Assembly (NCBI GenBank): GCA_013362805.1
Contig: JABFVL010000046.1
Location: 2,437-66,436 of the forward strand
Source: Mycobacteriales bacterium
Lineage (GTDB): Bacteria; Actinomycetota; Actinomycetes; Mycobacteriales; QHCE01
Length of the DNA stretch: 64,000 nucleotides
Direction: 5' to 3'
Shown here: positions 5,440-32,559 of the stretch, in pieces
Numbering within the stretch: position 1 is the first letter of the stretch
Layout of the letters: every line of letters begins with the position of its first letter
The notes under the pieces: model-generated
Databases searched by the model: none
The model's input: only the letters and a program-made list of their open reading frames with translations
What the model was told of the DNA's origin: nothing
Translations under genes and position numbers: made by a program

Positions 5440-5508
5440 CAGGAATCACCTCTATCGTTACTCAATGTTGCAGAATGATTACGCTACCGACCTGGGTGGC
5501 AAGCTGAC

Positions 5509-11317: not shown

Positions 11318-11406
11318 TTCTCACAGCTTTCCATCCTTCTTCCGAAGCCAGCCAGTCCGGTAACGTTGGGCACCCAAGCAGCAAGAGTCTGTTTCGACCA
11401 AAGGGG

Positions 11407-12402: not shown

Positions 12403-12434
12403 GCATGAAGGCCTCGTATCGACGCGCAGCGCAC

Positions 12435-14974: not shown

Positions 14975-15709
14975 TCAACGAGAAGCGAGCCAATCGGCAT
15001 AGCGGGTGGGGGCACGTTGTGCGCTTTCATCGGTGAGAACATCACCATCGATGGCCCCGAACATGCCAGCGGCGGGGTCGGTGACGACGGTCCTGCCGTC
15101 TGAGTTATGAGACAGCGTGATCCGACCAAGCTCGTCGAGAGAAAAAACTTCGGGGCCGACAATGTTGTGCACGCCCATCAGGGGCGTACCTACGGCCACA
15201 TCAGTTACCGCTTGGGCCACATCTTTGGCGGCGATTGGCTGGATTGGAGTGGCGGGCAGTCGAACGGTGTCGCCGTCGGCCGTCCACGATAGAACCGCGT
15301 CGATGAATTCCATGAACTGAGTCGCGCGGACGATCGAATATGGGACCCGGCCCGCGGTGAGCATGGATTCCTGTAGCACTTTGGCCCGGTAATAATCTAG
15401 CTGAGGCACTCGATCCACGCCCACGATCGACAGGATGACGAAATGACGGACGCCATTCTTTTGCGCCGCGTCCAACAGATTGTCCATTGAGGTCTTGAAG
15501 AACTCCAAAGACGCTTCATCGAAAGTCGGGGAGTTCGTCACGTTGTCCATGACTTCTGCGCGAGCCGCCGCTTTGTCCAAGCCTTGACCGCTGATGATGT
15601 CTACTCCAGTGGACGGCGAGTGTGGAATGGCCTCGTGCCCCATGGCATTCAGGTTCTCGACGACCTGCGATCCGATAAGCCCGGTACCGCCGATGACAGC
15701 GAAGTTCAT
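14975..15709 (-). CDS. NAD(P)H-binding SDR-like oxidoreductase (NmrA/HSCARG-like)
   Basis: N-terminal FAVIGGTGLIGSQVV. ATG 15709 sits 6 nt behind GAAGGG. ATG 15715 (the ORF-track start) directly abuts the SD. Confidence 0.8.
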   Translation of the reverse strand: MNFAVIGGTGLIGSQVVENLNAMGHEAIPHSPSTGVDIISGQGLDKAAARAEVMDNVTNSPTFDEASLEFFKTSMDNLLDAAQKNGVRHFVILSIVGVDRVPQLDYYRAKVLQESMLTAGRVPYSIVRATQFMEFIDAVLSWTADGDTVRLPATPIQPIAAKDVAQAVTDVAVGTPLMGVHNIVGPEVFSLDELGRITLSHNSDGRTVVTDPAAGMFGAIDGDVLTDESAQRAPTRYADWLASR

Positions 15710-16009
15710 GGGCATCCCTTCTAACTAGGCACTTATGCCTGCAATATGACATATGAACTTATTTGGGGGCCAGATTCACTTGGCGGATTTCGACCGCCGC
15801 CCCCCACCCACCCCTATGCTCTAAGCGAACATTAGGCGCGTAGCTAACGGGATTCGCGCACGTAGCTCGAAACTGATATCTCGACGCACCTAGCGAGATG
15901 ACTTAGGGTTAAACCGACCGTTTTGAGCCAATAGCGCCTTAATGTCGGGGTCCACTAGTGGACGTGGGCAGACTTTCAAGGTGCGCTACCGCGTGGGGAG
16001 CACCATGAC

Positions 16010-18178
16010 ATGGCTAATCCCACCGAGCCAAATAAGCCAGCTCCTGCGCCAACAAACGACCCCGAACCTCCACTGACCCGACGCTGGCGCTGGTTCCTAT
16101 CACCAGCGCTGATCCTGTTGTGGCTCATCATCGCGCTGCCACTCGGCGGCTTTCAAAGCAAACTCGCCGACGTTCAAGAAAACGACGCCGCCGCCTGGCT
16201 TCCAGAGAGCGCTGAATCCACCCGCGTCGTTGAACTGCAGAAAAAGTTTCAAGATGACGAGCTGATGCCCGCGGTCATCGTGTACGAACACCCAAGCGGC
16301 ATCACCGAAGCGGACCGAGCGATCATCGCCCAACAGCAAAGAGAAATTGAGGCAGCGGACCTAAAACGGGAAGCGATCCCAGCGCCACGTGACGGCAAAA
16401 CCGTCAACGGATCAGTACAAGCGGTCGCACTAAGCGTGCCATTGGCGCCCGGAGACGACGGTTGGGAACGCGCTGCCGAAGACGTCACAGAGCTACGCGA
16501 CATCACCGCGGACTCGGGCGACATGACGACGTACGTCACTGGCCCCGGAGGACTAGCGGCGGACTCTTCCGAAGCGTTCGGCGACATTGACACCACACTG
16601 CTGTTGACCACCGGAATCGTCGTCGCCGTCATTCTGGTGATCATTTATCGCAGCCCGATATTGCCCTTTGTTGTTTTGCTGTCGGTGGCGATGGCACTCG
16701 GTTTGGCCTCCGCGGTTATCTATTTCCTCAGCGACGCCAGCATTATTGATCTCAACGCGCAAAGCCAAGGCATCCTTTCCGTGCTCGTATTCGGTGCTAC
16801 CACCGACTACGCACTGCTTCTCATCTCCCGGTACCGCGAAGAACTCCGCAGACACCCACACGCCAAAGACGCGATGCGCACCGCGTATAAGGCGGCATGG
16901 GCACCCATTTTGGCATCGGGCGCCACCGTGATGGTCGGTCTTATGTGTTTGCTGTTCTCAGATTTGAGCTCGAACAAAGGACTCGGCCCAGTCGGGGCAT
17001 TGGGCATCGCTGCTTCTTTGGCCGTGGCGCTGACCTTTATGCCCGCCGTGCTGGCCGTGCTGCGACGTGGCGCGTTCTGGCCATTCCGGCCCGCGTACAC
17101 CTCAGCTCACGAGCCCGAACATCACGGTCTATGGGGACGGATTAGTCGCTTTGTTGGGAAACACGCACGGGCTACCTGGATCACCACCACCGCCGTGTTG
17201 CTCGTGGTCGCAACTTTCGCGAGTGGACTCGACACCAGCGGGCTCACCCAAGAGGAATCCTTTACGAACAAACCCGAATCAGTGCGGGGGCAAGAGTCAC
17301 TGAGTATGTATTTCCCTGGCGGCGAAACTGACCCCGCCATTGTGATTGGCAATGCCGACAAACTTCCCGAGCTGACCGCCGCGATCAAAGAAACCGAAGG
17401 AGTCGCTCAAGGCGAGGCCACCGTGTGGCCGACGGTTGATGGCCCGCCCGGAACCAGAATCGGCGAGCCAGAGGTGGTCGATGGGCTGGTCGAGATCAAC
17501 GCGATTTTGGAAGATCCCATTGATAGCCAGGGTGCTAAGGACACCGTTGATCGGCTTCGAGAGAACGTCCATAAGGTGCCGGGCGCCGATGGTCAGGTTG
17601 GCGGCTTCGCGGCGGTCTCCAGTGACATCCTGGAAACATCAGCGCGCGACCTGCGCGTCATTGTGCCCATTGTGTTGCTGGTCATCTTCGTGATTTTGGC
17701 TTTTTTGCTGCGTGCCTTGGTCGCTCCAGTGTTGCTGATCGCCACAGTCGTACTCTCTTTCGCGGCAACGCTAGGCGTCTCCGCCTTGGTATTTGACCAC
17801 GTATTTGGGCACCCCACATCGGACCCGAGCATTCCGCTATTTGGGTTCATCTTCCTAGTGGCGTTGGGCATCGACTACAACATCTTCTTGATGACCCGGG
17901 TCAGGGAGGAGAGCATCAAAAGTGGGACACGCGCGGGCACGCTGACGGGTTTGCGGGTGACCGGCGGCGTGATCACCTCGGCGGGCGTGGTGTTGGCGGC
18001 AACATTCAGCGTGCTCGCCATATTGCCGCTGGTCTTCCTCCTGCAGATGGGCTTTATCGTCGCATTCGGAGTGCTGCTAGACACCTTGGTGGTCCGTTCG
18101 TTCTTGGTTCCATCCGCGACGTTGGAGATCGGCGAGAAAATTTGGTGGCCGGGCAAATTGCGTTCGCGAAAGTTATGA
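16010..18178 (+). CDS. MMPL family (RND superfamily) membrane transporter
   Basis: 722 aa with two blocks of about 6 TM segments, each preceded by a soluble loop, as in MmpL. It is adjacent to a convergent TetR gene that overlaps it by 6 nt. Confidence 0.85.
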   Translation: MANPTEPNKPAPAPTNDPEPPLTRRWRWFLSPALILLWLIIALPLGGFQSKLADVQENDAAAWLPESAESTRVVELQKKFQDDELMPAVIVYEHPSGITEADRAIIAQQQREIEAADLKREAIPAPRDGKTVNGSVQAVALSVPLAPGDDGWERAAEDVTELRDITADSGDMTTYVTGPGGLAADSSEAFGDIDTTLLLTTGIVVAVILVIIYRSPILPFVVLLSVAMALGLASAVIYFLSDASIIDLNAQSQGILSVLVFGATTDYALLLISRYREELRRHPHAKDAMRTAYKAAWAPILASGATVMVGLMCLLFSDLSSNKGLGPVGALGIAASLAVALTFMPAVLAVLRRGAFWPFRPAYTSAHEPEHHGLWGRISRFVGKHARATWITTTAVLLVVATFASGLDTSGLTQEESFTNKPESVRGQESLSMYFPGGETDPAIVIGNADKLPELTAAIKETEGVAQGEATVWPTVDGPPGTRIGEPEVVDGLVEINAILEDPIDSQGAKDTVDRLRENVHKVPGADGQVGGFAAVSSDILETSARDLRVIVPIVLLVIFVILAFLLRALVAPVLLIATVVLSFAATLGVSALVFDHVFGHPTSDPSIPLFGFIFLVALGIDYNIFLMTRVREESIKSGTRAGTLTGLRVTGGVITSAGVVLAATFSVLAILPLVFLLQMGFIVAFGVLLDTLVVRSFLVPSATLEIGEKIWWPGKLRSRKL

Positions 18179-21322: not shown

Positions 21323-21907
21323 CTAGTCTGCGAGCAACACAGCACGCACGGGAGAACCGTCAGCATCAGCAATACGCAAGGGCAACGCCGAGAGCACATA
21401 ACGACCCGCCGGAACGCCCGTCAAATCGAGCTTCTCCAACAATGGAATACCCGCGCCGAGCAGCAAACGGTGAACAGGAAACTCCTCACCCAGCGCGTCA
21501 ACACTCAAACTATCGATGCCTACCAAAGATGGGCTCATCTCACTGAGCAGCTCCGCCGCCTCCGTAGACAGGTGACCGGCACCACCCGTGTGGAAAAGCA
21601 CGGCTTCGCCCTCGGCGACAACGGGCACATCCTGTTCGGACACTATCGATGTGGTGTGCACAACCTCGGCCGGGCCGAAGAACCGCGACAGCTCAAGCTG
21701 TTCCAAGCTCTTTCCGCCCTGCACAAAATGCGACGGCGCATCGACATGGGTGCCGGTGTGAGTCGTGAAATTGTGCAATTCAGTCAGCCGCGATGAGGAA
21801 CCATCGCTCCATTGAGCGCGCATCACATTGAGGCGCGGAGCTGGATCACCCGGATATACCGCCATGGAATCGTCAATAACGATTGAGATGTCGATGATCC
21901 GGCTCAC
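21323..21907 (-). CDS. Cyclase family protein (kynurenine formamidase-like metal hydrolase)
   Basis: The HTGTHVDAPSHF motif (HxGTHxDxPxH). GTG start behind AGGGAGAG, 13 nt after the stop of the upstream gene. Confidence 0.8.
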   Translation of the reverse strand: MSRIIDISIVIDDSMAVYPGDPAPRLNVMRAQWSDGSSSRLTELHNFTTHTGTHVDAPSHFVQGGKSLEQLELSRFFGPAEVVHTTSIVSEQDVPVVAEGEAVLFHTGGAGHLSTEAAELLSEMSPSLVGIDSLSVDALGEEFPVHRLLLGAGIPLLEKLDLTGVPAGRYVLSALPLRIADADGSPVRAVLLAD

Positions 21908-21920
21908 AAGGCTCTCCCTG

Positions 21921-22553
21921 CTATCGCACCGTCAATGTCGCGCCTTTAGACAACGGTGAATCGTGCAGCTCAAGCTCAGTGATGCTCACACCCACAGGCA
22001 GGTCGAACAAAAAGGTGAGCTCGAGCTTTTCGCCACTGGTGATGGTGACTGGAAGAACAAGCTCGCCATAGAGTTCTTCCATGGCGGCCTCATCCAGCCC
22101 CACCTTGTCACCATTGTCTAAGTGCGCGCTCTGCAAACCAGATAGCAGCACCCTGGGTTGGTTGCCAATATTCTCGACAGTCACAGGCAAAATACAAAAC
22201 TGTCCATCTGCGATTTGGGTGTAATTTCCTTGATTCGCCGTTGGATTGCCGCAGCTCAGTTCACCCGTTCGATACTCAAACTGGCCATCTCGAATCGGTT
22301 CACCCACCACCCCTTTAGCTCCGCCGCCTGACTTGCGGCCAGCTGAGGCAATACCCTTCTTTTGCCCGGTGGCTTGAGCAATCAACCAACCCGCGGCAAT
22401 GGCGATGACGAGAACCAAAACGCCGATTCCAATGAGGAATCCCTTGACTGCTTTGTCACCGTTTTGGTGATTGCCCGAGCCTAAGGAACCAGAAGCAGCC
22501 AGCAGGGACGCCACATCACGTTCATCATGGGGGCGGGCCAAGATTTCTTTCAC
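21921..22553 (-). CDS. Bitopic membrane protein with a DUF4352-like extracytoplasmic beta-sandwich domain
   Basis: One TM segment (FLIGIGVLVLVIAIAAGWLIA), a Gly/Lys linker, then a beta-rich domain (FCILPVTVENIGNQP...LELTFLFDLP). GTG start behind GAGGGGA. Confidence 0.7.
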   Translation of the reverse strand: MKEILARPHDERDVASLLAASGSLGSGNHQNGDKAVKGFLIGIGVLVLVIAIAAGWLIAQATGQKKGIASAGRKSGGGAKGVVGEPIRDGQFEYRTGELSCGNPTANQGNYTQIADGQFCILPVTVENIGNQPRVLLSGLQSAHLDNGDKVGLDEAAMEELYGELVLPVTITSGEKLELTFLFDLPVGVSITELELHDSPLSKGATLTVR

Positions 22554-22635
22554 AGTTGTCCCCTCGTCGCAGCTGGCAGCTCTCGCTAGTTTAGTGAGTC
22601 GTATATCGCCCCGTACGCCGGAATGCGATTACCTA

Positions 22636-23118
22636 TCAGGACCACGCGAACACGATAAGTAGGAGCAAAACGGCGCCAACCGCCCCGGCGGCCATCAAAC
22701 GTCTACGCAGAAACAACCGCCGACGCGCCAACACCTGCGCGGCCGACTCATCGTCAGCCATCCGGCGTCCCGCAGTGCGCAAATTCGCCAACGCGCCCTC
22801 AAACTCACGGACACCCGAACGCACCTCACCCAGCAACAACTCGGGATCCGTCTCAGCGACACTCGGCGCACCCAACGTGTCCGGGATCAGCACCTTCGAC
22901 GCCACCAACCGAGCCTGCGCATTCGACATCGCCCGACGCGCCTGCAACACCCACTCCGCACAACGACGCAACTCGGCATCCCGCAACGACTTCGCCGCCG
23001 ACAGCGCACTTTCCTGCTCAGCCCGAGCCTGCGCCAACCGCTCATCCCGCGAAGCGGGCACCTGCGCCAAACCCCGCATCGCCTCGGCATACTCCGACCA
23101 CAAAGGATCAGGCTTCAT
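22636..23118 (-). CDS. Tail-anchored coiled-coil protein (hypothetical)
   Basis: 160 aa: Ala/Arg/Glu-rich helices followed by a C-terminal TM segment (MAAGAVGAVLLLLIVFAW). The ATG at 23118 shares TGATG with the FtsK-like stop. Confidence 0.7.
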   Translation of the reverse strand: MKPDPLWSEYAEAMRGLAQVPASRDERLAQARAEQESALSAAKSLRDAELRRCAEWVLQARRAMSNAQARLVASKVLIPDTLGAPSVAETDPELLLGEVRSGVREFEGALANLRTAGRRMADDESAAQVLARRRLFLRRRLMAAGAVGAVLLLLIVFAWS

Positions 23119-25868
23119 CACGCACCCCCCGGACACGCGAACGGCACCACCGGCACCGGTTCAGCGCCCTGCCCACGATCCACAAACAAACCACGATGCG
23201 GCCGCGCCTGATACCGCACATAAGGACCACACAACGCCTGCACATCACTTTCCGGCGCCCGCAAAAACAACGCGCCCGCGACAAGTGGAGCCACGTCATA
23301 GCCCAACTGTTCGTTGAAGACCCGCAGGGAACCCCACCAGCCAATCAGGAACACCTCAACCAGCGGCCCATCGCGCACAATTCGCGACAGCGCCTCCGCC
23401 GGTGAACGCCCCGACATCGAGAACTGCCCCAACCGAGCCGCCCGATGCAAACCGGCCGCCAACACATAGACCCGGCGACGCGCCACATCCGGCTCGTTGA
23501 GCCGTTCATCCACCAAAGCGCCCAACTCCAGCAGCGCGTCACCCATCTGGCTTTCTTCCCGCACACTCACCGCATGACCGGCCGCCACCAAATCATCGGC
23601 CAAACGCTCCAGCTGCGGTGTCGGGTTACTGCTATCCCGAGCACCATCCAAAATCACGAATTCGGAGCTAGCCGCATTTCCGGCGGCGCCGACACCACCC
23701 AGGGAGTATGCCGCAGAATGCAGAATGCCCAAAGCGTCATTGCGCCCATCGCCAATAATCGCCAAAACTCGGCCCGGAGCCCGATCGAACGAGAACGAGA
23801 CCGGCACTGAATCCACCGTGATCGGCAAGCCCAACAGCGCGTCACGATCGCCCAAGCTCTTCGCTGAGGGTTCCAGCAAGTCGGGCTCACTCGGCCGCGA
23901 AGCGTAGAAAACGCGCGGCGCCAGCCGCTGTTGTGGCTGCCAGCGCGACCACAACATGTGACGCAGCCGGTCCAGTTGGCGTTCCTCAGCGAACGCCACT
24001 ACGGCCCGCCGGTTCGCATCCATCGCGCCATAATCTGAGTTGAGCACCAATTCACCGCGATAACGCAACGAAGCGGCCGCCGTGTTGCCCCGACCCAACA
24101 CCGCCTCAGATTCGCTCGACTCGGTCTTGAGGCTCAACCGCCACGGGAACTGGCCAAAAATCGAGCGTTCTTTCGAAGCCAAAGTGTCAATGCCCGACAG
24201 GGTTTGTGAAGCCAACACCAAATGGATACCGACGGCGCGACCACGCCGAGACAAATTCTCCAAAATAGATATCGCTTCCCGGCCAATATCGTCGGACTCG
24301 GCAACCAACACCTGAAATTCGTCGATGACCACCAAAAGGCGCGGCAAGACCTCATCGGGATGAGCCTGGCGATATGCCGCCAAACTGTTGGCATCACCAG
24401 CACGGAACCGCTCAGCCCGCCGACGGAACTGCTCCTCAATGTGGCGCAGCACCGCCAAACCAAACAGCCGATCGCCCTCCAAACCCAAAACTTTGGCGTG
24501 CGGCAACCAATGTTCACGACTCGCCGACGGCCCCAATCGGTCAAACTCAAGGCCCTCTTTGAAGTCGAGCAGATACATCTCCACCTCATCGGGGCTATAT
24601 GAGGCGGCAATGCTGTGCAAAAGCACCAACAACAAGTTCGATTTACCTTGCCCCGAAGCTCCACCAATCAACGCGTTCGCCAACGCTGGATCAGCGCCAC
24701 GCAACCGAAGCTTCACCAAATCAAGGCCCGACTTGCCGATGACAGCGGTCAGCCCCTCAGTGCCATCGGCGCTCCACACCAAAGCCGGATCGGGCAGAAG
24801 ATCACGAAACTCGACCACCGGCGCGGCACCAGCCGCCGCCAAATTCGCGACCTGATGACACACCTGCTCGATCAAGGCGCGTGGCGGAGAGGCATCGCAG
24901 TGAACATCTACGCCGGGCAGCGTCGACAGCTCGACAGCGCCACCGTTGGAACGCACGACCACCGAATCGCCAAACAACCCGGCCATGTTGAGCTCGGTCT
25001 CATTGGGCAGCCGAGGCAGCGACGGATCGTGATGAATGAGCATGCTCACGCCACGGCGCGGCCCAGCATGGGCCAGACGCATCACCTCGGCGTGAATGCG
25101 CGCATCGACGCCATACGGATAGTCGAGCAGCACAAATAGCCGGTAGGGCTCAGTTTGCATTCCCGTCAGCGCGCGCAGCTCCGCGACATCTTCGGCATCG
25201 TGCGCACCCGCCAAGTCGGCCATTCGCAGCGCGGCATCGCGCGCCTCATGCAACTTCTCGAGCAGCACGGGGCCGGTGGCTATAGGTTCACCAAACAGTT
25301 CACCAGCCTCTTTACGCAGTGCCGAAAATGGACTCAGCGCGCCACGAAGCTTCGGGTCGTACACAATCACTTCACAACGTCCAGCCGGCGCTGTGGCCAG
25401 GGCACGCAAGAGCAAGCTATGCAGTGCGCCGAACGACCAGGTTTGCTCCTCATTCGCCGACAACACGATGTTGCCCGCGTCGAGTAGCGGCACGAGAGCT
25501 GGGGCATCTCCCGCCGAGCCTATGCGCAGGTAGCGGGCGCCAGCACCGAGCCATTCGCCACTGCGCCACGCCGGATCGAAAAAGTCGCGGAGCGCGAGCC
25601 CAGGGGCAAGCCGCTCGGCACGAGATTGCACTACGGTGAGCGCGTTCTCAAGTGCCTCGGCGGCATCGGCCTCCGCGCTTTCGGTGGCTCGATGCAATGC
25701 GCGGGCGGCATCACGTTCGGACACGGTGTAGGCGTTGCGGGCTGAGGCGGCGGCTGAATCAGCCGCCGCCCGCAGGGCCTCTGTGTGCGAGTGCAATCGA
25801 AGGAAAGCCGCTCGCATGAGCTGCTCTTCTTCGGCCGTATGGACGGAACCCCAGATATGTGTTGTCAC
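23118..25868 (-). CDS. FtsK/SpoIIIE-family ATPase with three tandem P-loop-like modules (EssC/EccC-like core), no TM segment seen
   Basis: The central module has Walker A GGASGQGKSNLL and Walker B LLVVIDEFQVL, followed by GRAVGIHLVLASQ. The flanking modules repeat the layout with degenerate motifs: NIVLSANEEQ / LFVLLDYP / GVSMLIHHD, and VLAIIGDGRNDALG / VYVLAAGLH / VEVFLIGWWGS. The N-terminus is a coiled coil. Confidence 0.85.
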   Translation of the reverse strand: MTTHIWGSVHTAEEEQLMRAAFLRLHSHTEALRAAADSAAASARNAYTVSERDAARALHRATESAEADAAEALENALTVVQSRAERLAPGLALRDFFDPAWRSGEWLGAGARYLRIGSAGDAPALVPLLDAGNIVLSANEEQTWSFGALHSLLLRALATAPAGRCEVIVYDPKLRGALSPFSALRKEAGELFGEPIATGPVLLEKLHEARDAALRMADLAGAHDAEDVAELRALTGMQTEPYRLFVLLDYPYGVDARIHAEVMRLAHAGPRRGVSMLIHHDPSLPRLPNETELNMAGLFGDSVVVRSNGGAVELSTLPGVDVHCDASPPRALIEQVCHQVANLAAAGAAPVVEFRDLLPDPALVWSADGTEGLTAVIGKSGLDLVKLRLRGADPALANALIGGASGQGKSNLLLVLLHSIAASYSPDEVEMYLLDFKEGLEFDRLGPSASREHWLPHAKVLGLEGDRLFGLAVLRHIEEQFRRRAERFRAGDANSLAAYRQAHPDEVLPRLLVVIDEFQVLVAESDDIGREAISILENLSRRGRAVGIHLVLASQTLSGIDTLASKERSIFGQFPWRLSLKTESSESEAVLGRGNTAAASLRYRGELVLNSDYGAMDANRRAVVAFAEERQLDRLRHMLWSRWQPQQRLAPRVFYASRPSEPDLLEPSAKSLGDRDALLGLPITVDSVPVSFSFDRAPGRVLAIIGDGRNDALGILHSAAYSLGGVGAAGNAASSEFVILDGARDSSNPTPQLERLADDLVAAGHAVSVREESQMGDALLELGALVDERLNEPDVARRRVYVLAAGLHRAARLGQFSMSGRSPAEALSRIVRDGPLVEVFLIGWWGSLRVFNEQLGYDVAPLVAGALFLRAPESDVQALCGPYVRYQARPHRGLFVDRGQGAEPVPVVPFACPGGA

Positions 25869-25876
25869 GGCCGCGC

Positions 25877-26140
25877 CTACAGGGAAGTAGCGAAGCTATG
25901 TGCCTCATGCGCGGCCCGCTGCAACGCGGCGGCAGCCTCGGTGAGTTCTTTCTCAGCGGCATGCAAGGTGTCGATGATGGCCCGATCTGATTGGCGGGAG
26001 GTGCCGGCGATGGATTGCTGAATCTCATTGGCGGTGTTGCCACATGAGGTCTTCAGACGTTCCAAAGCTTCGGCCATGTTTTTAGAGTTGGTGGCTAGCG
26101 TGCCCACTTGGTTTTTGAGTCGCAGCAATGTGGATTCCAT
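25877..26140 (-). CDS. 87-aa all-helical protein (hairpin-sized like WXG100 proteins, but with no WxG motif)
   Basis: ATG behind AAAGGGCGGG. Heptad-like Ala/Glu/Leu-rich sequence with a central SCGNT turn. It lies 8 nt upstream of the FtsK-like gene. Confidence 0.65.
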   Translation of the reverse strand: MESTLLRLKNQVGTLATNSKNMAEALERLKTSCGNTANEIQQSIAGTSRQSDRAIIDTLHAAEKELTEAAAALQRAAHEAHSFATSL

Positions 26141-26198
26141 CTGCCCGCCCTTTCAATCGACCCGGCAAACAACCAGTCTAGTTCGGCGACAAGGGGTG

Positions 26199-27701
26199 CT
26201 ATATGTCCAAGGTGTGCAAAGCGGCTCGCATTTTGTCGAGTTCGTCTTTGTCGATGGCCGCTTGACGGTCGATGACGAACTCGCCTAGCTCGCGTTGTCG
26301 TTGCGCGTCCAGAACGGACACTTCGATCATGCCATCAGCGGTGTAACCCAAAATGACTTCTACAACCATCTCGTCATGGCCGTGCGGGGGCACCCGAATA
26401 CGCGCTGATCCGACAATCGTCACATACGCCGGATCTTCGTCCTCGCCTTCCGTGACAACGACCAGTATTTCGCGCTGGTTCTCCGCAAGTGTGTGGAACC
26501 GTCGTCGCCCTTGAGCTGGAATGGGGGTATTGCGCGCGATGACCACTGTGTTGATTTCGGCGCCGGTGTTGCCAGAGCGAGCGACAACGCCGAGGCTGTG
26601 TGCGGTGACATCGAAAATAGTGGGCCGGCGTCGACGTTGCGGCAAGTGCCCGGCCACAATTTGATCGGCGCAGATGGCGGCACCCAATGCCACCGCTTCA
26701 TCGGGATGCACGCTGCGATCAACCCGGGTTCCGGTGATGCGTTCGAGCATCGCCGCGACCATTGGCATTCGAGTGGATCCGCCCACCAGCAGCACTGAAT
26801 CTAGATAGCCGGCTTCGATATCCGCCTCGCCTAGCACCTCTTGGGTGATTTCTTCGGTCGAACGCAGTAGCGGCGCGGAAAGTTCGGTAAATAGCCCGCG
26901 GCTGATGGGAATGCCGTGTTCACCAATTTTCACCGACACCTCAGGCAGTGTGGACAGCGCCCGTTTGGCTTGCTCGCATCTGTCCCGCAGCACCGCTTCG
27001 GCGTGCTCCCCATCCAGACTGGACTCATCGCCCAGCTTTTGTAGCTGCTCATCAACATGCAACATCAGCACGTTATCGAAGTCGAATCCACCCAAGTTCC
27101 GGTCACCAGCGGTAGCGAGCACACGGAAATCATCGCCGTCGATTCGGACAACGGTGACGTCAAAAGTGCCGCCACCCAAGTCGTAAACGAGCACGGTTTG
27201 CTCGGGCCCAGGCGCCGTGCGGTAACCGAATGCCAGCGCGGCGGCGGTGGGCTCGTTGAGCACCCGCAATACGTCAAGGCCAGCGATTACCCCCGCCTGG
27301 GCGGTAGCTCGCCGGCGCGCGTCGTCGAAATACGCCGGCACGGTGATCACAGCTTGACGAATCGACTCATTGAGCGCGGCTTCGGCGTCCAACGCGAGCC
27401 GCCGCAGAATCAGCGCGGAAATCTGCGCCGCCGAGTAGCTGGTGCCCGCGCTGGTTTCGAACCGCCAACTGGCATCTCCCATGTGACGTTTGACGAGTTC
27501 AATGCAGTCGGCGGGGGCAACAGTGGCGGCGAGTCGGGCTTGAGTGCCAACAATGGGGCGTTCGGCGTCGAAGTACACGGCCGATGGGGTGGTGGTTTCT
27601 CCGGCCGTGTTCGGAACAATGCGCGCGTGACTCTGCTGCGCGTCTTCCACAATGGCCATCGCTGAATATGTGGTGCCCAGGTCAATCCCAAGGGCCGTCA
27701 T
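26199..27701 (-). CDS. Hsp70 family protein, short form lacking the helical lid (not housekeeping DnaK)
   Basis: GIDLGTTYSAMA, DLGGGTFDVTVV, LLVGGSTRMPMV and NPDEAVALGAA-like (HPDEAVALGAA) motifs. There is a beta-sandwich SBD-like C-terminus, but the protein ends at 500 aa. The start shares ATGA with the upstream stop. Confidence 0.9.
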   Translation of the reverse strand: MTALGIDLGTTYSAMAIVEDAQQSHARIVPNTAGETTTPSAVYFDAERPIVGTQARLAATVAPADCIELVKRHMGDASWRFETSAGTSYSAAQISALILRRLALDAEAALNESIRQAVITVPAYFDDARRRATAQAGVIAGLDVLRVLNEPTAAALAFGYRTAPGPEQTVLVYDLGGGTFDVTVVRIDGDDFRVLATAGDRNLGGFDFDNVLMLHVDEQLQKLGDESSLDGEHAEAVLRDRCEQAKRALSTLPEVSVKIGEHGIPISRGLFTELSAPLLRSTEEITQEVLGEADIEAGYLDSVLLVGGSTRMPMVAAMLERITGTRVDRSVHPDEAVALGAAICADQIVAGHLPQRRRRPTIFDVTAHSLGVVARSGNTGAEINTVVIARNTPIPAQGRRRFHTLAENQREILVVVTEGEDEDPAYVTIVGSARIRVPPHGHDEMVVEVILGYTADGMIEVSVLDAQRQRELGEFVIDRQAAIDKDELDKMRAALHTLDI

Positions 27702-28897
27702 GGGCGGGGACTTCGATCGGGCTTCGCTGATTTGGGCATACGCGGCCGGACGGCGGCAAACGACTTGGGCGCTTGGCTAGTGTCTTCCTGGAGCCGGCCC
27801 ATGCGTCTGGGAATGTTGCGCTCAATCAGTTTCGCGTTTCGTTCGTATTGCCATTCGTAGCAGGACATTCGAATGGACAGCACGAATGCGGCTAGCAATC
27901 CGACGACGAGGAAGAGCGCGCCTCCGGTGGCACCTGCCTTCATCGCGCCGGGCAAGTAGCAAAATCCGGCGAGCGCGAACATGCCGAACCCGACGGGCCA
28001 TTTCCATTTCTTTCGAAATTCCGCACCGGATAGCCGTTTTTTAGCCGCCCGTCGTGCGTATCCGAGTTGACGATTCAGATCGGCTACCAGTTCCTCATCA
28101 GTGGGCTGGACCGAGAGCGCTCGTTCACACAATGCTTCGATGTAGGCGGCCTGTTCGGGCGTGGTGATGATGAGTCGCCCGTCGGGCAGTTCGTGATGTG
28201 CTTGCACCGCTCGCTCGGCGATCGCCGCTGACAACGCGTTTCGCACTTCGCCTTCGTCAGGGTGTGCGCGATAGGCCTGTTCGCCTTCTTCCATCGCGGC
28301 ATCTACTTCACCATGTTCGGTGAGCAGCCGAACCAGCCGAGCGGGATAGTCGGGTTCATTTGGCGCCAGGCTGATGGCGGCGCGGAGCGCGGAGCTGGCT
28401 CGGTGTGGATCGTCCGCGGCGGCGAGGATGCCCGCTCGTTGAGCGTGTAGCCGAGCATCTTCGGGTTCGAGTCTCAGCGCGTTGTCAACGGCTTCGGCGG
28501 CTGCCCATTCGTCACCAGCCGATAGGGCGGCTTCGGCGAGAACTGAGTACGCGTAGGGGTTTTCTGGATCGTCGGAAACGGCGCGTTTGGCGGAGAAGAC
28601 AGCGGCGCCATGTTGACCACGGTCGATTTGTTCGAGAGCTTTTACGATCCACTGGCCTTCGCCACCGGGGTCTATCTCGGTGTCTTGCTCGTCATAGGAC
28701 TGCCGCTGTTGTGGGTCGAGCAGGGTGCGTTCTGCTTCGTCGAGCAGGTGCATGCGCCGTTCGGCTTCTTGCCGGGCGCTGATGTCTGGGGAGGTGGCAC
28801 GGCGTCGCCAGGTGCGGCGTTGCGCGGTGATGGCGGCGCGTATTTCGTCGGTGTTCGCCGCGGGGTCGAGACCGAGGGTGTCGTACAGCTCGGTCAC
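27698..28897 (-). CDS. J-like domain / TPR-repeat protein with a C-terminal two-TM hairpin
   Basis: GTG 28897 sits directly behind GGAGGAG (28901-28909). The N-terminus is LYDTLGLDPAANTDEIRAAI...SPD...LLDPQQRQSYD, J-domain-like with SPD in place of HPD. The middle is Ala-rich TPR-like repeats. The C-terminus is WPVGFGMFALAGFCYLPG...GALFLVVGLLAAFVLSI. The front 56 aa of ORF 27698..29065 are rejected. Confidence 0.8.
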   Translation of the reverse strand: MTELYDTLGLDPAANTDEIRAAITAQRRTWRRRATSPDISARQEAERRMHLLDEAERTLLDPQQRQSYDEQDTEIDPGGEGQWIVKALEQIDRGQHGAAVFSAKRAVSDDPENPYAYSVLAEAALSAGDEWAAAEAVDNALRLEPEDARLHAQRAGILAAADDPHRASSALRAAISLAPNEPDYPARLVRLLTEHGEVDAAMEEGEQAYRAHPDEGEVRNALSAAIAERAVQAHHELPDGRLIITTPEQAAYIEALCERALSVQPTDEELVADLNRQLGYARRAAKKRLSGAEFRKKWKWPVGFGMFALAGFCYLPGAMKAGATGGALFLVVGLLAAFVLSIRMSCYEWQYERNAKLIERNIPRRMGRLQEDTSQAPKSFAAVRPRMPKSAKPDRSPRP

Positions 28898-29024: not shown

Positions 29025-29059
29025 AAGTGGGGTGCCGCGCGGGAGGCGGCACCCCACTT
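29025..29059 (-). terminator. Hairpin downstream of the BldC-like gene (probable intrinsic terminator)
   Basis: Perfect 14-bp stem AAGTGGGGTGCCGC / GCGGCACCCCACTT with a 7-nt loop. On the minus strand it is followed by AGCGTTTCC, a short T tract only. Confidence 0.55.
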
Positions 29060-29097: not shown

Positions 29098-29313
29098 TTA
29101 GACTTCTTCACCCACGCGCTGTGTGGGGATGATTCCCCCGAGTAGTGCACGAACCTCAGTTTCACGGTAGCGTCGGTGCCCACCGAGCGTACGGATCGCC
29201 GTAAGCTTGCCGGCTTTGGCCCACCGGGTGACCGTTTTCGGGTCAACTCGGAACATGGTGGCCACCTCGGCAGGGGTGAGCAGAGGCTCTGTGTCAGGCG
29301 TGCGGGTTGTCAT
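29098..29313 (-). CDS. bldC: BldC-like small MerR/excisionase-type HTH DNA-binding protein
   Basis: 71 aa: LLTPAEVATMFRVDPKTVTRWAKAGKLTAIRTLGGHRRYRETEV. AAGGAG lies 5 nt before the ATG. The position next to a Val/Leu dehydrogenase and pur genes matches the arrangement I recall from Streptomyces. Confidence 0.8.
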   Translation of the reverse strand: MTTRTPDTEPLLTPAEVATMFRVDPKTVTRWAKAGKLTAIRTLGGHRRYRETEVRALLGGIIPTQRVGEEV

Positions 29314-29758
29314 TTTTACTCCTTACCACCCAAGCGACGGGGCGCGAGTTCGAGCTGTCGCCTCATTTGCATTGCGCGGCGTTTACCGCGTTAGGCCTTG
29401 CGGCGAAGTGCCGCGATGCTCACTCATAGTCCCTCGTGTCCAGCTTGTCAGGCATGGGCCGAAAGGCCGAAGCTTGATACCTATACGGCGGAAACCACCA
29501 CTCTGCGGATTGCGTCCGTGGCATTCCGTAATGATTCCGCAGAATTCCCCAGATTTCCCCTGGTTAGGGCATTACTATGCCCCCAACAAACTAAGCCGGA
29601 TATCGACGAATATTGCGCCAGGGCCCACTCGAAGTGGGCTAGATCACCCAGTTTCTCTAGCCTCAAATGCGACGTATGCCACATTCATCACTGCTGATGC
29701 CTTAAGCGTTACCCAATTCGCCCCACCGAAAACAACATTCAAGCCTTAAAGTGCCGAC

Positions 29759-30847
29759 ATGGCCGTCTTTCCAGAACACCTTGACAGCGAAAAACCCAGC
29801 ACAGGCCACGAACAAGTGGTCTTTTGCTACGACCGCCCCACCGGGCTCCGCGCCATTATCGCGATCTACTCAACCGCACTCGGGCCAGCACTAGGTGGCA
29901 CTCGCTTCTACCCCTATGCGAGCGAAACCGACGCCCTCCATGACGTACTCGAACTATCCCGAGGAATGGCGTACAAAAACGCGGTCGCCGGGCTAGACCT
30001 CGGCGGCGGCAAAGCAGTCATATGGGGAGATCCCGTTCGAGACAAAAACGAACCCCTGCTGCGCGCCTATGGACGATTCATCCAAACACTTGGCGGACGC
30101 TACATCACCGCATGTGACGTCGGAACCTACGTGGAAGACATGGATGTAGTCGCCCGCGAATCGAAGTTTGTCACCGGCCGCTCGCCTGAGCACGGAGGCG
30201 CAGGCGATTCCAGTGTCCTCACCGCCTACGGCGTATTTCTCGGAATTCGAGCCAGTGCCCATCAACGATGGGGCGATAACAGCTTGCAGGGGAAGAGAGT
30301 CGGCGTCGCCGGAGCCGGCAAAGTCGGCAAACACCTTGTGCCGCTTCTCGTCGAAGCTGGCGCCGACGTCATCATCGCCGACGTGAACGAGGCCGCCACC
30401 GCCGCGATCGCCGCGCAATATCCACGCGTCCAAGTAGCGAGCCCCCAAACCTTGCACACTCAAGAACTGGATATCTATTCGCCATGCGCGTTGGGCGGCG
30501 CGTTGAACGACACCACCGTGTCGGAACTTAACTGCGAGATCATTTGTGGCGCTGCCAACAATCAGCTCGCTCACCAAGGCCTCGACAAAATCATCGCCGA
30601 TCGCGACATCTTGTATGCCCCGGACTATGTGGTGAACTCCGGAGGCGTCATCCAGGTCGCCGATGAGATTGAGGGCTTCTCCTTCGAGCGAGCCAAAAAG
30701 CGGGCCTCGGGCATTTATGAGACCACCTTGCGCATGTTCGCACTCGCTGAAGCCGAGGGCGTGACCCCAACGGTGGCGGCCGATCGACTGGCTGAGCGCC
30801 GAATGGCGGAAGTTGGGCGCCTTTCCAGCATTCTTCTTCCCAGGTAA
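29759..30847 (+). CDS. Leu/Val/Phe dehydrogenase (Glu/Leu/Phe/Val dehydrogenase family)
   Basis: [31 protein letters not shown] (catalytic Lys context) and GAGKVG Rossmann motifs. Confidence 0.9.
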
Positions 30848-30999
30848 AGACCAAGGTCAGAGCGCTCATCAATGTGATTTATCGGGGTCGAGTTACCGCG
30901 AGGGATCACAAAGCGGTACGGTGGGCGCACGACAGATGCCGAAAAATCTCGGGGCTCGGAGTCGCGGGCCCCGTTTTACCTGTGCGAGGGGGTCGACCC

Positions 31000-31194
31000 A
31001 TGGGGCGCGGCCGGGCTAAGGCCAAACAGACCAAAGTCGCTAGGGAATTGAAGTACAGCTCCCCTGAGACAGACTTTGAGAAACTGCAACGGGAACTCGG
31101 GGGCGGTAAGCGCTCCGACGACCAAGAGGGCAACTCCTCGGAGCAGGATGACGCCGACGAGTGGGATCAAGCCCCGCGTCGGCATTCCCGCTAA
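31000..31194 (+). CDS. DUF3073 domain protein (conserved actinobacterial small protein)
   Basis: MGRGRAKAKQTKVARELKYSSPETDFEKLQREL, the hallmark N-terminus of this family. ATG 31000 lies behind GAGGGGG. The upstream 42 codons of ORF 30874..31194 are rejected. Confidence 0.85.
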   Translation: MGRGRAKAKQTKVARELKYSSPETDFEKLQRELGGGKRSDDQEGNSSEQDDADEWDQAPRRHSR

Positions 31195-31286
31195 TCTTCC
31201 GGTCCTGATTGGCTCCTGGGCCACACAGCGCTAGCCTGAATGAGGCGTGTGTGATTCCAGTGCATTCAGGTAACAGGGAGGTTGAT

Positions 31287-31616
31287 GTGGTGTCTCCATC
31301 GCTCAGGGCAGCTATCTTCCCATTAGCCGACCATTTTCCGCTCGCTGAGAATCCGTCAGCGGCGGAAAAGAACTCGGAACAACACCACCAAACTGGCGTC
31401 ACGCGCCCGTTTGGATTGCGCTATGCCGTCAAACCGACAGCGCATTCACCGGTGAAGATGCAAGCGGTCCACTATGACGAGCAGCGCCAAATCGGGCTGA
31501 TCGACCACGAAGGTATTAAGAAACCATTCACTACCTTCGACGCCCCGATGACCATCGAGTCAACGGGCGAAGTCGCCCGCCCCACCTACGACGAGATCCA
31601 CGATTACGATCACTAA
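31287..31616 (+). CDS. Putative graspetide (omega-ester RiPP) precursor peptide
   Basis: GTG 31287 sits 5 nt behind AGGGAGG (31275-31281). The C-terminal 32 aa, KKPFTTFDAPMTIESTGEVARPTYDEIHDYDH, carry 6 Thr/Ser and 7 Asp/Glu. It lies immediately upstream of an ATP-grasp maturase. The exact start is uncertain. Confidence 0.5.
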   Translation: MVSPSLRAAIFPLADHFPLAENPSAAEKNSEQHHQTGVTRPFGLRYAVKPTAHSPVKMQAVHYDEQRQIGLIDHEGIKKPFTTFDAPMTIESTGEVARPTYDEIHDYDH

Positions 31617-32559
31617 GAACCACGTCCTCGTCATCACCAGCCAGCTCGACCCGACCGCCGATGCGGTAGTCACCGAGCTGGCCCGACGAGGTTGCCAGGT
31701 TTTTCGCTTCGATACCGCACAATTTCCGCAAGAATTGACCATCACCGCCGAACTGGGAACCCAGTGGGCAGGCGGGCTACGGACCAAACATCGCAGCGTC
31801 CAGCTCAGCGAGCTCACAGCCGCCTACTATCGAAGACCCACACGTTTTAACTTCCCGCCACAGCTTGCCGGCGCAGAATTGCACTGGGCGGGGCAGCAAG
31901 CCCGTCTTGGCCTCGGGGGGCTGCTCGCGAACACCAGCGGATGGTTTAACCACCCGCATCACATGGCCTACGCCGAATACAAACCCACTCAACTCGCTAC
32001 AGCGAAGCGCCTTGGCCTGACAGTGCCACGCACACTCATCACCAATGACCCCGCCAGCGCCCGAGCATTCAGCGAGGAAGTCGGTGCGATGGTGTACAAA
32101 CCATTCGCCAGTGGCGGCATCGGCGACGCCGAACAGCCACGGGCGGTCTACACAAACGTCGTAGATCCCAACGATCTTGATGATTCCGTGCGTCTCACCG
32201 CGCATTTGTTCCAAGAGCACATCGCTAAAGCCTATGAAGTGCGATTAACGGTGGTAGATCAACAATTTTTCGCGGCGCGCATCAGCACCCACTCAAAATC
32301 CGCCAACATAGATTGGCGCACGGACTACGACTCGCTGACCTACGACGTCATCGAGGTTCCACACCACGTTAAAACACAGGTCAGCGCTCTGATGGGCGAG
32401 TTGAATCTTCGATACGGCGCACTAGATTTCGCGGTCACCCCTGAGGGCGCGTGGGTTTTCTTCGAGATAAACCCAAATGGGCAGTGGGGATGGATTGCCC
32501 ATCACACCAAACTGCCCATTTGTGAAGCGATCGCCGATGCGCTGATCGGCACTCGTTAA
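31609..32559 (+). CDS. ATP-grasp ribosomal peptide maturase (MvdC/MvdD-like)
   Basis: HVLVITSQLDPTADAVVTELARRG, YKPTQLATAKRLGLTVPRTLITNDP, DWR, and YGALDFAVTPEGAWVFFEINPNGQWGW. The first canonical start is TTG 31735, but the conserved N-terminus is encoded in frame from about 31618. I provisionally place the start at ATC 31609 (ATT 31603 is also possible). Confidence 0.75.
   Translation: MTKNHVLVITSQLDPTADAVVTELARRGCQVFRFDTAQFPQELTITAELGTQWAGGLRTKHRSVQLSELTAAYYRRPTRFNFPPQLAGAELHWAGQQARLGLGGLLANTSGWFNHPHHMAYAEYKPTQLATAKRLGLTVPRTLITNDPASARAFSEEVGAMVYKPFASGGIGDAEQPRAVYTNVVDPNDLDDSVRLTAHLFQEHIAKAYEVRLTVVDQQFFAARISTHSKSANIDWRTDYDSLTYDVIEVPHHVKTQVSALMGELNLRYGALDFAVTPEGAWVFFEINPNGQWGWIAHHTKLPICEAIADALIGTR

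Follow-up and report, generated by a model that had tools for sequence, protein, structure and literature searches.

A lidless Hsp70 and a J-like partner encoded with a predicted type VII-like ATPase module in Actinobacteria

Introduction

What is an Hsp70 with a J-like partner doing in the same run of genes as an ATPase of the type VII secretion kind? This question is raised by six genes, g1 to g6, in a 64,000-nucleotide stretch of DNA (hereafter the window) from a Mycobacteriales bacterium (GenBank assembly GCA_013362805.1, contig JABFVL010000046.1, positions 2,437 to 66,436 of the forward strand). On balance, the evidence tips towards the locus being the actinobacterial branch of a minimal, mobile type VII-like module that is joined to a dedicated Hsp70 module, with mechanistic steps that we infer. 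Most likely it handles or exports WXG-like substrates at the membrane with the help of its chaperones. The genes, together with the mark that bounds them upstream, are as follows.

g1, 27698-28897, minus strand: membrane-anchored J-like/TPR (tetratricopeptide repeat) co-chaperone, 399 amino acids (aa), from Pfam and hydrophobicity
g2, 26199-27701, minus strand: lidless Hsp70, 500 aa, from PF00012
g3, 25877-26140, minus strand: WXG100-like helix-turn-helix protein, 87 aa, from an AlphaFold2 (AF2) model and family context
g4, 23118-25868, minus strand: soluble EccC/EssC-like ATPase, 916 aa, from PF01580 and fold
g5, 22636-23118, minus strand: helical tail-anchored partner, 160 aa, from its C-terminal transmembrane (TM) segment
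g6, 21921-22553, minus strand: bitopic DUF4352 membrane protein, 210 aa, from PF11611
bldC hairpin, about 29025-29059, minus strand: mark of the upstream boundary of the cassette

Results

The ATPase and its small helical partner

Sequence and predicted fold of g4 point in the same direction. FtsK_SpoIIIE (PF01580) is its single Pfam match (residues 397-558, 3.7e-19), EccCa is its best NCBIfam match (3.6e-26, below the cut-off), and the top solved relative of a profile built from 14 homologues, searched against the Protein Data Bank (PDB), is the EccC of T. curvata (4nh0, 1.3e-39). The AF2 model, with a predicted local distance difference test (pLDDT) score of 82.8, consists of a long N-terminal helix (residues 12-87) and three alpha/beta modules, and its best Foldseek match in the PDB is again the three-domain EccC 4nh0 (E 2.9e-31, 942 columns); the EsxB-EccC structure 4n1a is also among the matches, as are FtsK and TcpA coupling-protein structures at E of about 1e-13 to 1e-16. 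Walker A (GGASGQGKS) and Walker B (VVIDEF) are found in the middle module only, modules 1 and 3 being degenerate, and the GQGKS and DEF motifs are invariant across the 14 divergent homologues, so that the model and the motifs both uphold the three modules, with a Walker A/B pair in the middle one only, that had been read from the sequence at the outset. Hydrophobicity reading and Pfam gave no TM or other hydrophobic segment and no FHA match in g4. Judged by these comparisons, g4 is an EccC/EssC-type three-domain P-loop ATPase whose central domain is predicted to be the only one competent for hydrolysis, and in the model an N-terminal coiled-coil helix replaces the FHA and TM parts of EssC/EccC.

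The 87-residue g3 is modelled with high confidence (AF2 pLDDT 93.9) as two helices, residues 2-43 and 50-86, folded into a helix-turn-helix hairpin. Its top Foldseek matches in the PDB are EsxE/F, EsxA and EsxB, with TM-scores of 0.7-0.8 and E-values of 0.17-1. While a word-index search with g3 returned six close relatives only, an exhaustive search of 1.84 billion proteins gave a family of 59 representatives at 50% identity, nearly all of them 86-87 aa long. The family consensus at the turn is I/V-x-G (mostly I-G/A-G), with an invariant G46 and no tryptophan; the C-terminal tail of g3 reads F-A-T-S-L, and the family pattern there is (F/Y)-A-x-x-(L/I). Members of the family occur in 75 of 83 ATPase loci, and most of the remaining loci lie on cut contigs. 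Sub-threshold WXG100 matches were obtained for 10 of 53 family representatives (best 8e-4), mixed with apolipoprotein and coiled-coil noise. Since no sequence match is above threshold, the assignment of g3 to the WXG100 type draws on fold and context: going by the model, g3 looks like an ESAT-6/WXG100-like helical hairpin and is a candidate member of the superfamily. The remark in the initial annotation that there is no WXG pair is nevertheless misleading, as a WXG100-like hairpin is the most constant partner of the ATPase. A hidden Markov model (HMM) of the g3 family, run on the 64-kb window, finds g3 alone and neither a second g3-like gene nor a toxin gene.

Membrane partners of the ATPase

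The third constant component is g5, a helical protein with a TM segment in its last 24 residues. In 79 of 80 related loci the stop codon of the ATPase gene is also where a TM-bearing open reading frame (ORF) starts, and the clade-specific families of g5 are homologous to one another (hhalign probability 94-99% for the window clade, A, against clades B, C and D); g5 is a homologous, translationally coupled, tail-anchored partner in essentially every relative. The first TM segment of this partner begins 22-30 residues from the C-terminus in 17 of 17 scored loci that carry Hsp70 and J, as against a median of 95 residues, with additional TM segments, in the 59 loci that lack them; L006 and L072 are exceptions. 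The correlation between tail anchor and chaperone is phylogenetically confounded and goes back to essentially one event, that of the Kribbella clade. In L072, from Amycolatopsis sp. H20-H5 (9611-12517), two ORFs (9611-10984 and 10988-12517) share the ATPase between them, which reflects either a pseudogene or a sequencing frameshift.

The last gene, g6, encodes a protein with an N-terminal TM segment at residues 32-64 and an extracytoplasmic DUF4352 domain (PF11611, 2.6e-8). A homologue follows g5 only in L004, L008, L009, L011 and L013, and none does so in Cryptosporangium or in the other clades; g6 is a subclade-specific neighbour outside the conserved core.

The chaperone pair

With a PF00012 match of 2e-113 and the catalytic motifs GIDLGTT, NEPTAAA and DLGGGTFD in place, g2 belongs to the HSP70 family. 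It has a nucleotide-binding domain, a linker and a beta-sandwich substrate-binding domain, and is without the helical lid: its alignment to Hsc70/DnaK stops at g2 residue 491 and Hsc70 residue 518, where the lid starts, in agreement with the first reading of g2 as a lidless Hsp70. It scores 364 bits against the DnaK NCBIfam cut-off of 648 and is below the HscA cut-off as well. Its relatives in Cryptosporangium, Rhodococcus, Arthrobacter, Kocuria, Cryobacterium, Nocardia and others form a lidless subfamily of about 495-540 aa with 45-66% identity, whose members score 430-700 bits with one another versus about 230-280 bits with DnaK/Hsc70.

In g1, a DnaJ match (PF00226, 4.4e-7; 30.3 bits, cut-off 27.8) is accompanied by matches to several TPR families, among them TPR_19 (2.8e-9) and TPR_14 (2.8e-8). 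A hydrophobic hairpin at about residues 300-348, made up of the segment 318-348 and a weaker one before it, lies towards its C-terminus, and C-terminal TM segments were present in all g1 homologues tested. The J-like domain (residues 1-70, 28700-28897) has SPD where J domains have HPD, and the family keeps the pattern RQEAE...EAE..LLD...R..YD after this position. By sequence, this is an entire family of J-like domains without HPD whose partner is an Hsp70 that appears competent as an ATPase, and because HPD is missing the coupling of g1 to g2 may be unconventional.

The housekeeping DnaK-DnaJ-GrpE system was considered as an identity for these genes and ruled out by the 364 bits against 648, the missing lid, the SPD tripeptide, the lack of a Zn finger among the Pfam matches of g1, and the fact that no GrpE was found in the loci of the window clade. 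The initial annotation had likewise set the locus apart from the housekeeping dnaK operon, and the separate lidless subfamily now places g2 elsewhere. A second DnaJ-like protein (553 aa, 8.6e-6, with a TM segment) is encoded between the J-TPR gene and grpE in Cryobacterium glaciale (L089, 10678-12339).

Distribution of the core and of the chaperones

Of the GTDB species-level genomes, 283 have the g4 family. The 80 best loci among them were retrieved, further ones were added through protein look-ups and a plasmid collection, and all ORFs of these loci were searched with the window proteins and with the proteins of the Kribbella and Arthrobacter loci; clades were taken from a neighbour-joining tree of the ATPase. 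Hsp70 and J-like/TPR genes flank the ATPase in 19 of 83 loci, a fraction that is not an estimate of frequency in a sample dominated by Kribbella, and they do so in three of the four deep ATPase clades. In the window clade the order is J-Hsp70-g3-g4-g5, without GrpE and always adjoining bldC. The order is Hsp70-J-GrpE-g4-g5-g3 in the clade of Arthrobacter, Kocuria, Cryobacterium and a Rhodococcus plasmid (clade B), and J-Hsp70-GrpE-g4-g5-g3 in the clade of Nonomuraea, Nocardia and a Streptosporangiales metagenome-assembled genome (MAG). The chaperone pair is absent from the Kribbella/Microlunatus clade. Where present, the pair stays linked to the ATPase also where ATPase identity has fallen to 35-40%, where gene order and genomic site differ, and where bldC is missing.

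The initial annotation had treated the six genes as one system and had made that view depend on their being conserved together elsewhere. The J-like protein, the Hsp70 and the ATPase do co-occur in three of the four clades, and to this extent the view stands; as a single unit of six it does not, because g3-g4-g5 is the constant core, g1-g2 is a frequent but dispensable addition, and g6 is limited to one subclade.

The genomic setting differs between clades. Immediately upstream of the cassette, bldC is found in the window and in 11 related loci, all confined to one clade. In the window, in Cryptosporangium and in the closest MAG, the cassette sits within a conserved purM...DUF3073-vdh-bldC backbone, which in the window spans 29098-32559 and, as in L001, L084 and L092, comprises purM (AIRS), an ATP-grasp gene (MvdD/R2K-like), DUF3073, a Val/Leu-type dehydrogenase gene and bldC. 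We take this backbone to resemble the vdh-bldC region of Streptomyces coelicolor, around SCO4089-4092. In Cryptosporangium and in L091 the cassette directly precedes genes for a UvrD-type helicase and RNase T. In the window clade the cassette sits at a fixed place in the chromosome and looks as if it had been inserted there long ago. Elsewhere it appears in mobile surroundings: the Rhodococcus plasmid, typed as non-mobilizable, carries the whole cassette beside a recombinase and TniQ, and in Arthrobacter, Kocuria and Cryobacterium the cassette is located within islands flanked by integrase or resolvase genes.

Some features of the related loci may be recorded here. In Arthrobacter sp. AB6 (L003) the cassette lies between two integrase-like genes and adjoins a Prok-E2_B/ThiF plus Prok-JAB pair and an AAA_16 gene (816-2998, 5175-6152, 15198-16322); the pair looks like a conflict system of the ubiquitin-like conjugation type, and the setting like a defence or mobile island. 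Clade B cassettes open with an additional gene of 127-143 aa before Hsp70 (L003, 6283-6666; L086, 4063-4458; L089, 7608-7997; L088, 2877-3308), which has no family match and carries an N-terminal TM segment in three of four cases; its product is possibly a further membrane component that the window is without. In Kribbella (L002, 15743-16518, and 48 other loci), a conserved 75-aa ORF and a 183-aa protein with a Pfam Acb5 match (PF26761) are encoded downstream of the cassette, and AdnAB-like helicase-nuclease genes upstream of it.

Variable genes behind the small protein

In the mobile cassettes, the gene that follows the 86-aa g3 gene differs between genomes. In Arthrobacter it encodes an Aspzincin_M35 peptidase, in Kocuria a papain-fold toxin of the glutamine deamidase type (Gln_amidase, PF15644, 2.5e-14), in Cryobacterium an ADP-ribosyltransferase (PF03496, 1.3e-5, above the cut-off), and in Kribbella a 442-aa protein with no Pfam match, whose C-terminus, as read from sequence alone, may be PD-(D/E)xK-like. 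The g3-family HMM gives matches over the first ~85 residues in the M35 protein (9e-12), the Gln_amidase (4e-11) and the ADP-ribosyltransferase (5e-4), and, more weakly, the Kribbella 442-aa protein (2.6e-3), a Nonomuraea protein of 104 aa (1.8e-3) and a Rhodococcus protein of 272 aa (0.011). A small ORF follows most of the g3-headed proteins. A conserved helical head on a variable toxin body, encoded beside an EccC-type ATPase, follows the logic of WXG100/LXG polymorphic toxins. This arrangement is present in relatives (M35, Gln_amidase and ADP-ribosyltransferase, and WHH with SMI1/KNR4 in Helicobacter) and not in the window. The window copy is a toxin-less, chromosomally fixed form, and of all variants its physiological output is the least clear.

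In Nonomuraea sp. NPDC050556 (L085, 13752-15936), a protein kinase-VWA fusion and a PP2C gene come directly after the cassette, with two more Ser/Thr kinase genes nearby. The kinase-VWA/PP2C set resembles the TerY-P triad that stands beside the homologous proteobacterial module (compare L094).

Gene junctions and boundaries of the locus

All six ORFs lie on the minus strand of the window (G+C ~60%) between 21921 and 28897, as determined from the ORF list and by reading the sequence. The stop of g1 and the start of g2 share ATGA at 27698-27701, and the stop of g4 and the start of g5 share TGATG at 23116-23120, from which it follows that g5 starts at the ATG at 23118 and is 160 aa long. Eight nucleotides (nt) separate g3 (25877) from g4 (25868), 58 nt separate g2 from g3, and 82 nt separate g5 from g6. 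A Shine-Dalgarno sequence, GGAGGAG, stands 5 nt ahead of the GTG at 28897 and supports this start for g1 over the longest ORF (to 29065). Upstream, bldC occupies 29098-29313 (BldC NCBIfam, 4.7e-31), and the hairpin 3' of it has a perfect 14-bp stem in the sequence (AAGTGGGGTGCCGC/GCGGCACCCCACTT). What the initial annotation had said of the layout, namely six co-directional genes and their coordinates, tight coupling at ATGA, TGATG and the 8-nt gap, and a bldC hairpin at 29025-29059, is found again in the sequence at every point, and its gene-by-gene domain content is borne out by the Pfam, TM and AF2 results.

A scan of the window for promoter and terminator consensus sequences performed no better than on shuffles, so the limits of the operon were drawn from gene spacing and the bldC hairpin alone. 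A cyclase/arylformamidase gene (21323-21907, minus strand; PF04199 1.8e-20; TIGR03035 4.6e-32, under the cut-off) begins 13 nt past the stop of g6, and given this short gap the transcription unit may extend further; no counterpart of it follows the cassette in any related locus compared. An MMPL-family transporter gene (16010-18178, plus strand; PF03176 5.5e-110) lies ~4 kb from the cassette among TetR, NmrA-like and dehydrogenase genes and appears to be unrelated to it.

Discussion

Proposed mechanism

How might these proteins work together? A hexamer of g4 would be tethered to the membrane through coiled-coil pairing of its helix 12-87 with g5, which would supply in trans the membrane segment that EccC has in cis. 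The C-terminal module of g4, which is degenerate, could recognise a g3 dimer, or g3 together with a g3-headed cargo, through the conserved (F/Y)-A-x-x-(L/I) tail, in parallel with the binding of EsxB to D3 of EccC, and hydrolysis of ATP in the middle module might then power translocation or release at the membrane. Anchored beside this machine by its TM hairpin, g1 would recruit the lidless Hsp70. The Hsp70, in turn, may keep cargo export-competent, strip partner or immunity proteins from it, or assemble or insert the tail-anchored g5, a role comparable to those of EccA (a TPR-AAA+ ATPase) and EspG in ESX. In the window clade, the substrate could be g3 itself or a cargo encoded elsewhere.

Several observations weigh against the view of the locus as a type VII-like module with its own Hsp70. 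First, those concerning g3. Its turn reads I-A-G-T-S in place of W-x-G, the Foldseek E-values of so simple a hairpin are not significant, its score against Pfam WXG100_2 is 13.5 bits for a cut-off of 27, and nothing above threshold for WXG100 was obtained by single-sequence Pfam search, by scans with 19- and 53-member families or with PDB profiles. Second, those concerning the chaperones. The core is found without Hsp70 and J in about 58 Kribbella-type loci and in the window-clade member L006/L091, and the chaperone is therefore not essential to it; conversely, a Spirillospora MAG (L090, 5595-8781) encodes a triad of J-TPR protein, lidless Hsp70 and GrpE with no EccC-like ATPase within 8 kb, so that the triad can stand alone or serve something else. 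HPD is conserved in 0 of 19 g1 homologues (APD, HPK, SAQ, NPD, QAD and others), which makes canonical stimulation of the Hsp70 doubtful. Third, those concerning export. No toxin or immunity gene is attached to the cassette in the window clade, and Pfam and NCBIfam gave no match to EccB/D/E, MycP, EssA/B or EsaA in the locus or in the flanks examined; g4 itself has no TM segment, and classical secretion was therefore doubted for its homologues by Bell et al. (PMC11090510).

A more specific form of the proposal, in which the locus encodes a specialised export machine of a kind not recognised before in Gram-positive bacteria, with the soluble ATPase docked on g5 and fed with WXG-like-headed toxins by the lidless Hsp70 that g1 recruits as an integral, system-specific component (with GrpE in the mobile versions), is possible but doubtful. 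If true, this would make it the first specialised system for secretion or toxin delivery in bacteria that has an Hsp70 of its own at its centre, and g1 and g5 together would, with their TM segments, substitute for the missing T7SS membrane core (T7SS, type VII secretion system).

Alternative explanations

Export may not be involved at all. In a role in intracellular conflict or abortive infection, the ATPase, the WXG-like adaptor and the Hsp70 would sense a phage or plasmid and free or activate the toxin inside the producer. Homologous ATPase/WXG100 modules do stand inside predicted defence superoperons, both in type III-A CoCoNuT and with the TerY-P triad (Caballeronia; PMC11090510); the Nonomuraea kinase-VWA fusion and PP2C gene lie right after the cassette; the Arthrobacter cassette of L003 is placed between integrases next to the E2/ThiF/JAB system; and a TM-less g4 at a locus without T7SS channel proteins would suit such a role. 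However, the cassette conserves three dedicated membrane anchors (g1, g5 and the small clade B protein with its N-terminal TM segment), which argues for action at the membrane, and variable toxins with a conserved helical trafficking head are a hallmark of exported polymorphic toxins, the Helicobacter toxin gene moreover being followed by SMI1/KNR4. A scan of the six proteins with PADLOC-DB 2.0, the defence-system screen that the initial annotation had proposed, returned no system, only generic FtsK-domain matches to SspH and mad8 and weak coiled-coil matches to LmuB, and the window clade is chromosomal, toxin-less and at a fixed site. We regard this explanation as rather unlikely.

A further possibility concerns the Hsp70/J pair only, and is compatible with either function. 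The pair could be a biogenesis factor that captures and inserts g5 post-translationally, or that assembles or resets the g4 hexamer. The partner has a true tail anchor (22-30 residues) in 17 of 17 Hsp70/J-positive loci versus the median of 95 in 59 negatives, and with the TM segment so near the C-terminus co-translational insertion is impossible. In addition, g1 is membrane-anchored in every homologue, and eukaryotes offer an analogy in Hsp70/TPR-dependent targeting of tail-anchored proteins. Yet this correlation amounts to essentially one evolutionary event, L006 and L072 are two exceptions to it, no dedicated Hsp70 is needed by bacteria for the insertion of tail-anchored proteins, and the added TM segments of the partner in Kribbella could just as well make up for the TM hairpin that was lost with g1. 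Biogenesis as the task of the pair is, in our estimate, distinctly unlikely.

It is very improbable that g1 and g2 are second DnaK/DnaJ proteostasis genes placed by chance beside an FtsK-like gene, or that the locus is a developmental operon under BldC control. Paralogues of dnaK do occur in many Actinobacteria (PMC11019930), and bldC is directly upstream in the window and 11 related loci; but the linkage of Hsp70/J to the ATPase persists at 35-40% identity, in varied orders and at varied sites including a plasmid, without bldC, the adjacency of bldC is a matter of one clade and fits insertion into the purM-DUF3073-vdh-bldC backbone, and g2 is lidless and under the DnaK cut-offs. Scarcely credible, finally, is an FtsK/TraB-type motor for DNA translocation or conjugation to which Hsp70 would be an accessory, for although g4 has an FtsK_SpoIIIE Pfam domain and FtsK and TcpA among its fold matches (about 1e-13 to 1e-16) and some relatives are plasmid-borne, its closest relatives by sequence and fold, over all three modules, are the protein translocases EccC/EssC, the FtsK matches do not go beyond the one active module, a WXG-like protein and toxins, and not a relaxase or Spd, are its constant partners, and the Rhodococcus plasmid with the cassette is typed as non-mobilizable.

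Significance

Should the type VII-like reading be right, the locus would be a third, stripped-down branch of type VII-like systems, and, with its three to five proteins, would be a simple model of the way in which WXG-type cargo is recognised and moved by an ATPase of the EccC type. It would also hold a rare bacterial Hsp70 paralogue with a defined, system-specific client, and what Hsp70s other than DnaK, Hsp70s without a lid and J-like domains without HPD do, all long-standing questions, becomes testable with the cassette. The attached toxins (M35 protease, glutamine deamidase, ADP-ribosyltransferase and nuclease-like) point to a store of effectors, for use between bacteria or in defence, in the Actinobacteria of soils. 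A mechanism found here would transfer to the homologous modules in CoCoNuT and TerY-P superoperons.

Comparison with known systems

In the ESX or T7SSa systems of Actinomycetota, which also include EsxAB, EccA and EspG, the membrane core consists of EccB, EccD, EccE, MycP and a TM-bearing EccC, and T7SSb of Bacillota comprises EssA-C, EsaA, EsxA and LXG toxins with their Lap partners. With these canonical systems the locus shares a multi-domain ATPase of the EccC/EssC fold, a helical-hairpin substrate of ~90 aa encoded beside it, and toxins that begin with a helical domain akin to the small substrate; ESX, too, has a dedicated cytosolic TPR chaperone/ATPase (EccA). In contrast, g4 is without TM and FHA parts, has one active domain, which is the second of three, and is accompanied by Hsp70 and a J-like/TPR protein in place of chaperones of the EccA/EspG/Lap type. 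The initial annotation had excluded a canonical ESX/T7SS because EccB/D/E and MycP are missing and the ATPase has no TM or FHA part, and we reach the same view after inspecting the flanks. The Mougous/Whitney preprint on Esx versus an epibiont (PMC13622651) concerns canonical Esx.

Kinship with HscC/DjlB/DjlC, compared here with the E. coli K-12 proteins, was rejected: g2 is 35% identical to HscC and no closer to it than to DnaK/Hsc70, and no similarity between g1 and DjlC was detectable. The comparison drawn in the initial annotation is thus an analogy only. Both pair a non-housekeeping Hsp70 with a neighbouring class-C J partner that has a C-terminal membrane anchor; HscC (556 aa), however, keeps the lid that g2 lacks, and g1 has TPR and is without HPD. 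HscC is thought not to use GrpE (PMC8215388), unlike the relatives of the window system.

Dedicated Hsp70 modules have also been described in conflict systems of actinobacteria and firmicutes that are built around GAP1-N2 GTPases and contain HSP70, GrpE and DnaJ-/TPR-fused proteins (Kaur et al. 2020, PMC7159879). The likeness lies in a dedicated Hsp70 with GrpE and a DnaJ-/TPR-bearing partner in a predicted actinobacterial conflict system. The difference is that those systems are built on GAP1-N2 GTPases and FNIII-repeat proteins and have no EccC-like ATPase or WXG-like protein. Identity with the GTPase/Hsp70 systems or with MoxR-vWA conflict systems (PMC7159879, PMC8195603) was rejected because the window has no GTPase, MoxR or vWA.

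The closest counterpart is a predicted mobile T7SS-like module, outlined in two papers (Zhang et al. 2012, PMC3482391, Table 1, footnote 6; Bell et al. 2024, PMC11090510): a three-module YueA/EssC-like ATPase, active in the middle one, with an N-terminal coiled coil, no TM or FHA part, and a solo WXG100 protein. According to Bell et al. 2024 (PMC11090510, section 10), such an EssC homologue lies within type III-A CoCoNuT superoperons, in a module that also has a pair of WXG100 proteins, of which one is without WxG, a fusion of a coiled coil with a nuclease, and a small protein encoded downstream, and for the TM-less homologue some other mechanism is, in their view, probable. They credit Anantharaman et al. 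2012 with the mobile stand-alone secretion system, and Anantharaman et al. is also cited in the H. pylori pan-genome study PMC4978471, where a "DnaK homolog, WxG100 family" cluster adjoining a "FtsK/SpoIIIE, HNH nuclease" cluster is called a "WXG100 secretion system". An Hsp70 at the Helicobacter plasmid locus could not be confirmed, the upstream 628-aa protein having no Pfam, NCBIfam or PDB match.

Sequence comparison with representatives of that module shows kinship that extends past the active ATPase domain they share. The 927-aa ATPase of the Caballeronia plasmid pSBC2-5 shares 28% identity with g4 over residues 242-898 (E 1e-47), and its neighbours are VWA, an annotated WXG100, CARF, VWA, PP2C, a kinase and an AAA protein. 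The Helicobacter plasmid ATPase aligns with g4 by hhalign at E 2.8e-39 (columns 158-658) and adjoins a WXG100-like gene (Pfam 4.6e-5), a WHH/colicin-DNase gene and an SMI1/KNR4 gene. Far weaker matches (E 6e-10 to 1e-7) come from the canonical eccCa genes of Streptomyces plasmids. To judge from these scores, g4 stands nearer to the EssC-like ATPases without TM and with a coiled coil that have been published than to canonical EccC.

The mobile module and the actinobacterial loci have in common an ATPase of ~920 aa in which a coiled coil at the N-terminus precedes three domains of the FtsK/HerA type and activity is confined to the middle one; a linked nuclease or other effector with a coiled-coil or helical head, followed by a small protein; location on mobile elements; and an occasional linkage to VWA-kinase-PP2C genes of the TerY-P-like kind. 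As for the small protein, which in the published module is of the WXG100 type and sometimes lacks WxG, g3 fits in fold and position, but W-x-G is replaced by I-A-G and all sequence matches are sub-threshold. The two differ in that the actinobacterial small protein is a separate, tight family with I/V-x-G rather than W-x-G, that a tail-anchored partner is always coupled to the ATPase in the actinobacterial loci, and that the passages on the mobile module do not mention an Hsp70, J-like/TPR and GrpE set. In the full-text literature searched, we found no description of a link between such a chaperone set and the module, nor of any experiment on the module. The claim that no known system joins an Hsp70/J pair to an FtsK-type ATPase accordingly stands as regards the Hsp70 link, and does not stand for the core of ATPase and WXG-like protein, which is already known, by computation, as a predicted mobile T7SS-like module. 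What is new is the dedicated lidless Hsp70, whose membrane-anchored partner bears TPR and is without HPD (and which in mobile versions is joined by GrpE), the tail-anchored adaptor found throughout, and a distinct domain of 86-87 aa that also forms the head of toxins.

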